Sequence record: PZ357121.2 | DNA from: a phage | Direction: 5' to 3' (one strand) | DNA: 64,000 nt | Part shown: piece by piece, positions 36,606-38,250 of the stretch | How positions within the stretch are numbered: the stretch's first letter is position 1 | Layout: each line of letters starts with the position of its first letter | The notes under the pieces: generated by a model | What the model was told of the DNA's origin: nothing | Databases searched by the model: none | The model's input: only the letters and a program-made list of their open reading frames with translations | Program-made: the position numbers and the translations under genes

Positions 36606-36634
36606 CAAAAAGCCCCAACCTTTCGGAAGGGGCT
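36606..36634 (-). terminator. rho-independent terminator (AGCCCC...GGGGCT hairpin then T5)
   Basis: plus strand aaaaagccccaacctttcggaaggggct; downstream of the tRNA/stable-RNA region. Confidence 0.6.
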
Positions 36635-36673
36635 ATACCTTGTCGGGGTTCCACCTGCAAGGCAAGTGTTTGT

Positions 36674-36765
36674 ACGAAACGCCGGGATTCGAACCCGGTT
36701 ATTAAGCAGTTGACGCTACTCAATATTTTTAAAAGGCCATATCTCGACCATATCCGAACGTTCCG
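36674..36765 (-). ncRNA. tRNA-like small RNA candidate (canonical T-arm and acceptor-like stem, no full cloverleaf)
   Basis: minus strand has CCGGG-TTCGAAT-CCCGG T-arm followed by CGTTTCG that can pair with CGGAACG 92 nt upstream; D and anticodon arms could not be folded by hand; in an ORF-free 290-nt gap. Confidence 0.3.
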
Positions 36766-36933
36766 TCAAAAACGCTACTCGGCTTACGGCAAAGATATTT
36801 CCTCGAATCGATAATTCTGTGCGCTGTTTCTGCTGTGATGTAAGGGGATATTAACGAATCATAAAGATTTATTAAGACCAGTCCTTACGCAGGGAACATC
36901 AGTCCGACGACTTACCGGTAGCGACCCGGCTTC

Positions 36934-37278
36934 TTATTTTGGCATATCATCAATTTGCTCTCGACGCCGACGCCATAGATTAATCGCTTCATAAACACAT
37001 TCTGCGTTTGGTATATGACGGCAATAATATAATGATTCGCGTTTCTGGAACCGATGTTGCAACGGGATTTCGTTTAAAAGGTCTTTACGGTCAAAGTATT
37101 CAAAACTAGTTAACCCAGAACGATTTTTAATGAACTTCCAATGCCCAAATTCATTTTGAACATAGATGTAATCGGCATGCTGATACAGCGAATTAATCAA
37201 TCGATGAGAAATAACTGTATCATATTCGTTAAAATAAAACGTTAAATCATGAACTACCAGATAAATATTGCCTTTCAT
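36934..37278 (-). CDS. hypothetical protein
   Basis: ORF track 36934..37329; ATG at 37278 with GAGGAAA upstream gives 114 aa, immediately 3' of tRNA-Arg. Confidence 0.45.
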   Translation of the reverse strand: MKGNIYLVVHDLTFYFNEYDTVISHRLINSLYQHADYIYVQNEFGHWKFIKNRSGLTSFEYFDRKDLLNEIPLQHRFQKRESLYYCRHIPNAECVYEAINLWRRRREQIDDMPK

Positions 37279-37296: not shown

Positions 37297-37372
37297 TGGT
37301 GCCTCTAGAAAGATTTGAACTCTCACCATTAACCTTAGAACGATTATATGCTATCCATTACACTATAGAGGC
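37297..37372 (-). tRNA. tRNA-Arg (anticodon UCU), CCA encoded
   Basis: hand-folded cloverleaf: acceptor GCCTCTA/TAGAGGC, D-arm GTGT-AATGGATA-GCAT, anticodon stem TAATC/GGTTA with loop GTTCTAA, T-arm GAGAG-TTCAAAT-CTTTC, then ACCA. Confidence 0.8.
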
Positions 37373-38023
37373 AATTAAATTATTTACAATATCTTCTTTA
37401 TAAACTTCAGCATAATGAAGTTCATATATTTCCCATCCTAATGATTTTATAATATCATGGCGTTCTTTATAATAAGGGGCCAAAATCTTTTTCTTAGGAT
37501 TGGAGTAATGTTGGTTTCCATTAACTTCAATAATAATCTTTTTATCTATTAAAGCAATATCCGTGCAATACGCTCGGTTTTTAACCGGTTGGTATTCTTC
37601 AATAAATGAAATTCCGTTTTCTATTAATTTAGATTTCAAAAATTCACAAGGCACAGATTTAAATTTTGTATTTTTCTTCCAAGGATGTTTATCAGGGTTT
37701 TCATTCAACCATTTTTTCCGAGCATTAGATATTTTTATTCTAGATTCCTCAGAGTGTTCTCTACCTAATGAAGCGGCTGACAATTTTTGTCTAGTCTCTT
37801 CCGAAATTACTACAGGGACACCAGTCTTTTTAGATACAACATACTGGTTTAAATTACCTGAAGCTATACGTGCTTTATTCATTGCTGCAATGGCTGATTT
37901 AGAACTTTCTTTATACAATTCCAATTTAGGGTTGGATTTACACCATCTAGTGTGGTTAGCCATCCATCCTTTAGGTTTATTAGAAATATCAAATTCCATA
38001 TTACAATGTTTACAAATGCTCAT
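37358..38023 (-). CDS. putative free-standing endonuclease: N-terminal zinc finger, NUMOD3-like linker, C-terminal Vsr/DUF559-like (PD-(D/E)xK) domain
   Basis: 221 aa from ATG at 38023 (AGGAGA upstream); CKHCN...HTRWC; SEETRQKLSAASLGREHSEESRIKISNARKKW; IEVNGNQHY...ERHDIIKSLGWEIYELHY; last 5 codons overlap the 5' end of tRNA-Arg. Confidence 0.5.
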   Translation of the reverse strand: MSICKHCNMEFDISNKPKGWMANHTRWCKSNPKLELYKESSKSAIAAMNKARIASGNLNQYVVSKKTGVPVVISEETRQKLSAASLGREHSEESRIKISNARKKWLNENPDKHPWKKNTKFKSVPCEFLKSKLIENGISFIEEYQPVKNRAYCTDIALIDKKIIIEVNGNQHYSNPKKKILAPYYKERHDIIKSLGWEIYELHYAEVYKEDIVNNLIASIV

Positions 38024-38097
38024 TACCAATTATCTCCTATAAAATATAGGAGTATTTATTATTTGGATAGAGCACTTAATTTACTTCGTTTAAATTA

Positions 38098-38169
38098 CTG
38101 GCGCACTTGGACTCGAACCAAGATAAAGGAGTTAACAGCTCCCCGTAATAACCTTTATACGATGCACCA
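38098..38169 (-). tRNA. tRNA-Asn (anticodon GUU), CCA not encoded
   Basis: hand-folded: acceptor TGGTGCA/TGCGCCA (one G-U), D-loop with GG, anticodon stem GGGAG/CTCCT with loop CTGTTAA, T-arm CTTGG-TTCGAGT-CCAAG; D-stem has one mismatch. Confidence 0.6.
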
Positions 38170-38175
38170 TTTGTT

Positions 38176-38250
38176 TGGTGACCCTGGCTGGTTTCGATCC
38201 AGCTACCTATCAGTTATGAGCTGACAGCTCTCCCATTGAGCTACAGGGCC
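38176..38250 (-). tRNA. tRNA with CAU anticodon (Met, or Ile if lysidine-modified), CCA encoded
   Basis: hand-folded: acceptor GGCCCTG/CAGGGTC, D-arm GCTC-AATGGGA-GAGC, anticodon stem GTCAG/CTGAT with loop CTCATAA, T-stem GCTGG/CCAGC with atypical loop ATCGAAA, then ACCA. Confidence 0.7.

Follow-up and report, generated by a model that had tools for sequence, protein, structure and literature searches.

The 64-kb window, i.e., the whole stretch of phage DNA that was analysed, derives from the genome of a Tequatrovirus (T4-like). As judged by alignment and gene order, the region that follows its tRNA genes is two RNA genes on the minus strand: (i) a homolog of T4 rnaD, the gene of species 2 RNA (36818..36937), and (ii) a homolog of T4 rnaC, the gene of species 1 RNA (36673..36811). 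Species 1 (rnaC) and species 2 (rnaD) are small stable RNAs of T4 that have been known since the 1970s. Both genes are annotated in the T4 reference genome (NC_000866), where the misc_RNA features after tRNA-Arg are rnaD ('species 2 RNA', T4s002, 71053-71171) and rnaC ('species 1 RNA', T4s001, 70908-71046), followed by e.8; thus, both are already known. The window aligns with this T4 stretch column for column, and its minus-strand order is that of T4 (tRNA-Arg, rnaD, rnaC, terminator, e.8). T4 rnaC is 98.7% identical to the window (151-nt query spanning rnaC), and T4 rnaD aligns with 36937-36818 at ~84% identity over its full length (119-120 nt). When phage genomes were searched by blastn with the region, 809 records were returned, nearly all from Tequatrovirus and relatives.

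A sequence-only reading of this DNA had proposed an equivalent of the T4 stable small RNAs. The base-for-base match to rnaD and rnaC of NC_000866, with identical neighbours, shows that the guess was correct and that the locus is a known one. The same reading had counted one candidate RNA. Its assignment to the small stable RNAs stands, but the count does not, as the region comprises two RNA genes and the tRNA-like module belongs to rnaC. The description of the region as ORF-free also holds: the overlapping ORFs are all spurious, at most 43 aa long, and none is conserved. A coding explanation was rejected, since the ORFs are this short and unconserved and the substitutions in stems are compensatory.

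rnaD and the genomic neighbourhood

Like T4 rnaD, the rnaD of the window sits immediately 5' of rnaC (the spacer is 6 nt) and has identical 5' and 3' cores. The 5' core is a CCGG-GUCGCUA-CCGG hairpin followed by AAGUCGUCGGACUGAUGUUCCCUG, and the 3' core is AUCACAGCAGAAAC.GCGCAC; both are conserved, and both are kept in Mosigvirus and Dhakavirus. By contrast, the middle hairpin is variable and has diverged from that of T4, and the 3' end reads ...GCGCACAG where T4 has ...GCGCACCA. The range of rnaD is narrower than that of rnaC, covering Tequatro-, Mosig- and Dhakavirus plus a divergent Marfavirus copy. In the Marfavirus-type loci (L015 107-130; L021, L022, L037) an rnaD-like AAGUCGUCGAACUGACGUUCCCUG ... 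AUCACAGC..GAAGCGGCGCA lies ~490 nt upstream of rnaC, with tRNA-Met between them. This divergent copy implies that rnaD is older and more widely spread than BLAST at the level of Tequatrovirus suggests. Pairing of the rnaD loop (CGCUAC) with a GUAGCG repeat of rnaC was considered and rejected, as the 6-mer match does not exceed chance and Dhakavirus, though devoid of rnaC, keeps the rnaD loop unaltered. When a T4-like phage was adapted to the host ECOR34, a convergent rnaD SNP arose in all lines (PMC12685909), which suggests that the locus matters for host adaptation.

The window and T4 differ in what precedes rnaD. In T4, tRNA-Arg abuts rnaD, whereas in the window a 114-aa ORF (36934-37278, minus strand) lies between the two. 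This ORF belongs to phrog_3355 (E = 3e-50), has no Pfam domain, and its TAA stop (at 36934) overlaps the first bases of rnaD; phage RB51 has a homolog, RB51ncORF141c, in the same place. With the ORF interposed, the 5' end of rnaD cannot arise by 3' processing of tRNA-Arg, as that of T4 could.

Three tRNAs are detected in the window by ARAGORN and Rfam, all on the minus strand: tRNA-Arg (37372-37297), tRNA-Asn (38169-38098) and tRNA-Met (38250-38176). The cluster (37297-38250, minus strand) thus has three genes (Met, Asn, Arg) compared to eight in T4, and the same trio in the same order is noted in Dhakavirus CLB_P2. Between tRNA-Asn and tRNA-Arg, at the position of T4 segB, lies a 223-aa ORF (37358-38029, minus strand) that encodes a different protein. 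Its Pfam matches, to NUMOD3 and to DUF559/RAP (Vsr-like nuclease), are weak, as is a PHROG match to homing endonucleases; the protein is probably another homing endonuclease that occupies the same niche of the tRNA cluster.

The intrinsic terminator predicted to end the tRNA-cluster transcript (36606..36634, minus strand) is conserved in T4. As had been claimed, a hairpin and U run fold here as a rho-independent terminator, with AGCCCC-UU-CC-GAAA-GG-UU-GGGGCU at 36634-36611 and UUUUU at 36610-36606. A simple σ70 promoter/terminator scanner was uninformative and missed this terminator because of the U.U interruption in its stem. The T4 late promoter TATAAATA was sought directly upstream and was not found near the locus; its counts across the window are at chance. 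Between rnaC and the terminator is a hairpin-forming stretch, CACUUGCCUUGCAGGUG (36652-36668, minus strand), that is kept in T4 and in the rnaC-less Dhakavirus. The ORF downstream (36419-36144) is a member of phrog_2678, the family of T4 e.8. In phage RB51 (L041 819-1292) an ORF annotated 'flanked by 34 bp imperfect direct repeat' is found between rnaC and e.8; insertion of such an ORF accounts for the two-piece BLAST matches that span ~950 nt in many Tequatroviruses.

Helices and loop pairing of rnaC

The rnaC of the window is the same gene as T4 rnaC, with the same neighbours, the same terminator and the same strand relative to the tRNA genes, and two substitutions within it. One (C/U at 36745) is at an unpaired position; the other (G/A at 36707) turns a U-A pair of hairpin 2 into U-G. 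The boundaries of the gene were transferred from the T4 annotation, which places the start 1 nt before the acceptor stem and the end at ...GUA, short of the conserved ...UACA.

The structure of rnaC was derived on a MAFFT alignment, A3, of 32 distinct homologs from more than 10 Tevenvirinae genera. On A3, 93% of the cells of the derived structure are paired, versus 83% for shuffles and 35-47% for slid partners, and 18 pairs are changed on both sides; the observed values were reached by none of 500 shuffles. The same four-arm layout is obtained from RNAalifold when run separately on two hairpin-1 sequence classes, and the rnaC helices are present even in the minimum-free-energy fold computed from the window sequence by itself (z-score -4.55). 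A covariance model (R1) scores the window rnaC at 162 bits and finds no other copy in the window. On this predicted fold, rnaC is a tRNA-like RNA and not a standard tRNA.

The acceptor stem of rnaC is formed by the two ends of the molecule. Its 5' strand, CGAUUCG (36804..36810, minus strand), pairs with CGUUUCG (36681-36675) over 7 bp, with covariation: the third pair is G-C in 22 and A-U in 10 of the A3 sequences (n = 32), while the two central positions are U.U in 30/32 and become U-A and C-G in Tegunavirus. The 3' strand and the tail U-A-C-A that follows it (together 36671..36681, minus strand) abut the T stem in tRNA-like fashion. A tail of the form U-N-C-A is present in all 32 sequences (e.g., UACA in the window, UUCA in Tegunavirus and UCCA in Marfavirus), with C75 and A76 invariant. 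The T arm, CCGGG-UUCGAAU-CCCGG (36682..36698, minus strand), is 100% paired in A3 with two covarying pairs, and its loop is canonical in 28 of the 32 sequences. Acceptor stem and T arm are directly adjoined (7 + 5 bp, covarying, loop UUCGAAU). The minus-strand T arm had been recognised from the letters as CCGGG-TTCGAAT-CCCGG, and it is found at 36698-36682, followed by CGTTTCG at 36681-36675. The acceptor partner assigned at that time, ~90 nt upstream (CGGAACG, 36765-36759), is not sustained: this helix shows no compensatory change among the 32 homologs and was rejected, the true partner being CGATTCG at 36810-36804.

The interior of the molecule is occupied by two hairpins. Hairpin 1 (36734..36803, minus strand), recovered by RNAalifold in both sequence classes, is long and opens with a D-like stem of 3 bp, AGG (36803-36801) with CCU (36736-36734), directly after the acceptor stem. 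The D-like stem encloses a segmented hairpin of ~60 nt, the apical stem of which has compensatory changes at 5/5 pairs, and a conserved GG (36738-36737) lies just 5' of the CCU strand. Hairpin 2 (36700..36725, minus strand) has a 10-bp stem, UAUUGAGUAG / CUGCUUAAUA, with compensatory changes at 8/10 pairs and a 6-nt loop. Hardly any variation is seen in A3 at the 5' AGGA or in the linker GCCUU..AAAAU. The earlier statement that no D or anticodon arm could be folded needs correction, as D-like and anticodon-like arms are present, in non-canonical form. The GG at 36738-36737 is CG in exactly four homologs (L004, L038-L040), and these have the T loop UGCAU(C/G)C, not UUCGAAU (36685-36691). The joint change may reflect a contact like that of tRNA G18/G19 with the T loop, or a joint loss; it could represent one or two events and is offered as a lead only.

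The apical loop of hairpin 1, UUGACG (36764..36769, minus strand), and the hairpin-2 loop, CGUCAA (36710..36715, minus strand), are exact reverse complements of each other. Six standard pairs between the two loops are kept in 32/32 sequences, including paired switches to UUGGCG/CGCCAA in Marfavirus and UUGAUG/CAUCAA in Tegunavirus, so that the covariation amounts to two independent lineage events only. The chance that two given 6-mers are perfectly complementary is ~1 in 4096. One of the scans that supplied homologs placed no constraint on either loop, and all of its full-length distinct matches are in A3, with no exception to the pairing; thus, the sample is not biased toward loop complementarity. 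The comparison indicates that the loops of rnaC pair, most simply as a 6-bp intramolecular kissing loop, and it is the pairing of the loops that the covariation reports, as intramolecular and intermolecular pairing look alike in an alignment. The nucleotides CGGAACG, formerly taken as an acceptor strand, are the 3' part of the hairpin-1 apical loop and its stem.

The motif GAGTAGCGT, said to occur twice, has exactly two copies in the 64-kb window (36780-36772 and 36721-36713), compared to 0.19 expected by chance; none of 100 shuffles had two. The second copy of GAGTAGCGT is kept in T4-type phages only. The repeated GAGUAGCGU was considered as a conserved switch and rejected, as the second copy is unconserved outside the T4-type phages.

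Distribution of rnaC

Of the 751 phage records that match the 151-nt rnaC-spanning query, 491 do so at 99% identity or more; for the adjacent rnaD, identity ranges from 77 to 97%. The divergent rnaC sequences are from Karamvirus (Pet-CM3-4, VPA32, PS49 and CIP9-like contigs), Winklervirus LC53, Tegunavirus fHe-Yen9-01, Gelderlandvirus Melville, Kagamiyamavirus EcS1, Mosigvirus, Kanagawavirus (Kosakonia 305, KLB31, PEi20), Moonvirus NM4.3, Marfavirus F48, Erwinia phage COW86c and Citrobacter phage Ursula, together with IMG/VR and metagenome loci. Wider viral scans returned T4-like contigs only, with one metagenome scan adding a single locus, and a search of 185,579 bacterial and archaeal genomes with a degenerate rnaC pattern gave no copy.

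An rnaC flanked on both sides by tRNA genes is seen in Karam-, Winkler-, Gelderland-, Kagamiyama- and Moonvirus and in related unclassified phages. This is the usual setting outside Tequatrovirus, with Trp/Gly, Phe/Trp or Met/Gly as the flanking pair. Within these arrays the gap between the upstream tRNA and the start of rnaC is ~6 nt, and a few to ~12 nt separate the end of rnaC from the next tRNA; rnaC is thus spaced like a tRNA gene. In Dhakavirus CLB_P2 (L019 601-803), the hairpin and terminator that elsewhere come after rnaC stand directly behind rnaD, with rnaC precisely missing. The gap falls between ...GCGCACC and CACUUGCC..., as if a cassette had been gained or lost. This clean absence implies that rnaC behaves as a cassette, one that travels in the tRNA arrays of many enterobacterial T4-like genera.

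Searches of the window with ARAGORN and Rfam reveal no tRNA, tmRNA or other Rfam family at the locus at gathering scores and only noise at E <= 10; rnaC has no family in Rfam 15. The closest score, at the permissive threshold, is to tRNA-Sec (16.6 bits compared to a gathering score of 47, E = 3.3), so the relaxed-threshold check that had been suggested for a standard long-arm tRNA finds none. R1 matches the tRNA-Asn (18 bits) and tRNA-Met (11.5 bits) of the window weakly but end to end, which fits a tRNA-derived architecture of rnaC. In GenBank, MK373779 and MK327928 label rnaC 'tRNA-OTHER' and 'tRNA-Lys'. Labels of this type (Phe, Lys, OTHER), which tRNA finders and annotation pipelines sometimes attach to rnaC, are a recurrent annotation artefact, and the tRNA-Phe that ARAGORN calls within rnaC of Karamvirus-type phages uses the false acceptor helix.

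Maturation, function and comparison with known RNAs

A species 2-species 1 dimeric precursor in T4 was reportedly described by the Apirion lab, and T4 work of the 1970s-80s is said to have included RNase P processing of these RNAs. In T4, a Northern blot with an RNAC probe shows RNAC, and both RNAC and RNAD are classed as late RNAs (PMC9697503). One primary transcript of ~1.75 kb is given as the precursor of the tRNAs and the species I/II RNAs (PMC2330249, citing Broida and Abelson), and the presumed stop of T4 tRNA-cluster transcription lies past the species I RNA gene (PMC2330249). The stability and co-transcription of the RNAs are taken from this literature; the homology, synteny, helices, loop covariation, tRNA-array placement and terminator come from the present analysis.

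A route of maturation can be proposed. The rnaD and rnaC sequences would form the tail of the tRNA-cluster transcript, which is predicted to stop at the terminator (36634-36606), and rnaC would behave like a tRNA toward the processing machinery. With a 7-bp acceptor stem that ends stacked on a canonical T arm, rnaC could be cut on its 5' side by RNase P, and this cut would free the 3' side of rnaD as well. Exonucleases may then trim the 3' trailer back to the conserved U-N-C-A end. The kissing loop would close rnaC into a compact, nuclease-resistant shape without a free anticodon; such a body would explain both the stability of rnaC and its inability to decode. Taken as a whole, the explanation that the region holds homologs of T4 rnaD and rnaC, with tRNA-like maturation and a compact rnaC body closed by loop pairing, is very probably correct. 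The two U.U mismatches of the acceptor stem and the ORF between tRNA-Arg and rnaD count against it.

Two other identities for the RNA were weighed. The 3' ~93-96 nt could be a class II (long variable arm) tRNA or pseudogene, with CGGAACG/CGUUUCG as acceptor stem and hairpin 2 as variable arm. ARAGORN reports a 96-nt 'tRNA-Phe(gaa)' on this fold at two Karamvirus-type loci (L003 1550-1645; L005 1547-1642), some GenBank labels at the site name a tRNA, the weak Rfam alignment is to tRNA-Sec (16.6 bits), and the CGGAACG/CGUUUCG helix can be drawn in 81% of cells. That helix, however, has 0 compensatory changes, pair 50-140 is broken in 21 of the 32 sequences, and each of 500 shuffles equals or betters its score; moreover, the nucleotides of CGGAACG are fully explained by the covarying apical stem and the kissing loop. 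At the window site itself ARAGORN and the Rfam tRNA model are empty, there is no conserved 7-nt anticodon loop, and the T4 annotation sets the mature 5' end 46 nt further upstream. A free 7-nt loop on a 5-bp stem is absent from the alignment, in which the stem has 10 bp and its 6-nt loop is paired to the hairpin-1 loop in 32/32 sequences. A class II tRNA is thus highly improbable, and the suggestion of a degenerate tRNA, which had been offered as the alternative to a stable RNA, gives way to the latter. A reduced tmRNA-like or Y-RNA-like (YrlA) molecule would share with rnaC the topology of two ends that form an acceptor stem beside a T arm, together with a pseudoknotted interior. It is extremely unlikely, as ARAGORN detects no tmRNA and Rfam neither tmRNA nor Y-RNA even at E <= 10, a tag ORF is absent, and the G.U (G3.U70) that alanyl-tRNA synthetase needs is not seen in any sequence at the third acceptor position, where the pair is A-U or G-C; E. 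coli, moreover, is not known to have a Ro/Rsr protein.

Other alternatives bear on how the loops pair and on whether the RNAs do anything. The complementary loops could pair between molecules, giving rnaC dimers or multimers, or form an alternative conformer: the covariation speaks for loop pairing rather than for pairing within one molecule and, as the sequence can be read, the duplicated GAGUAGCGU of T4-type phages would give the 3' strand of hairpin 1 a further partner in the second copy. Both loops reside on one RNA, however, in arms that emerge from a single junction, so that closure within the molecule is favoured, and a conserved-switch conformer is made unlikely by the loss of the second motif copy outside T4-type phages; this option is judged improbable. 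An equally small chance is given to the possibility that the locus is a decaying, functionless tRNA-gene relic or a mere stable by-product of tRNA-operon processing. Deletions of the T4 tRNA region are viable in laboratory hosts, rnaC is absent altogether from Dhakavirus, and a by-product origin is harder to exclude for rnaD. No function has been found in 50 years, and that of rnaC and rnaD is still listed as unknown in literature up to 2025 (PMC3014915, PMC9697503, PMC12685909). Decay is at odds, however, with the near-identity (at least 99%) of the rnaC query in 491 records, next to neighbours that drift, and with the retention of rnaC in more than 10 genera, where compensatory changes maintain five helices and the tertiary pairing. 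Also against decay, the unpaired AGGA, GG, AAAAU linker and U-N-C-A tail are invariant, rnaD keeps conserved cores around its variable hairpin, and the convergent rnaD SNP arose in every line adapting to ECOR34 (PMC12685909).

The leading guess as to the function of rnaC, though weakly held, is a non-decoding mimic of the tRNA 'top half' that occupies a protein recognising the acceptor/T-arm region of tRNA. Candidate targets would be an enzyme of tRNA processing or modification, or a host defence directed at tRNA, with the mimic not usable or cleavable as a tRNA. A broader proposal is rather unlikely: that rnaC is the founding member of an uncatalogued Tevenvirinae RNA family, a top-half mimic closed by a kissing loop and perhaps a decoy or inhibitor, with rnaD perhaps a second RNA relevant to host range. 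The decoy might then act, for example, on an enzyme of tRNA maturation or on an anti-phage nuclease that targets tRNA, to which it would present an uncleavable, non-decoding RNA. No description of the corrected rnaC architecture and its covarying kissing loop was found in the papers that could be searched. The correct acceptor stem, the covarying loop pairing, the invariant U-N-C-A tail, the tandem U.U mismatches of the acceptor stem and the cassette-like spread of rnaC provide handles for experiments.

Compared with canonical tRNA (RF00005), rnaC shares a 7-bp acceptor stem that runs directly into a 5-bp T stem, the UUCGAAU loop, a single discriminator base, a near-CCA tail, a GG beside the D-like stem and placement in tRNA arrays. 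Unlike canonical tRNA, rnaC is ~140 nt long, has a 60-nt hairpin in place of the D loop and an 'anticodon' arm of 10 bp with a 6-nt loop sequestered by pairing, carries a tandem U.U in the acceptor stem, ends in ACA instead of CCA and scores below threshold in tRNA models. The tRNA-like domain of tmRNA and YrlA are, as is rnaC, cases of non-decoding RNAs in which two RNA ends form a mimic of the tRNA acceptor/T arm. They differ from rnaC, which has no sequence or covariance-model match to them, no G3.U70, no ORF and no Ro-binding stem, and in which a kissing loop between two hairpins holds the body together. For the kissing loop itself, HIV TAR-TAR* and ColE1 RNA I/RNA II are a structural precedent only, with loops of 6-7 nt that pair along their whole length. 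These are two-molecule complexes that act in dimerisation or antisense control, whereas the two loops of rnaC belong to one tRNA-like RNA.
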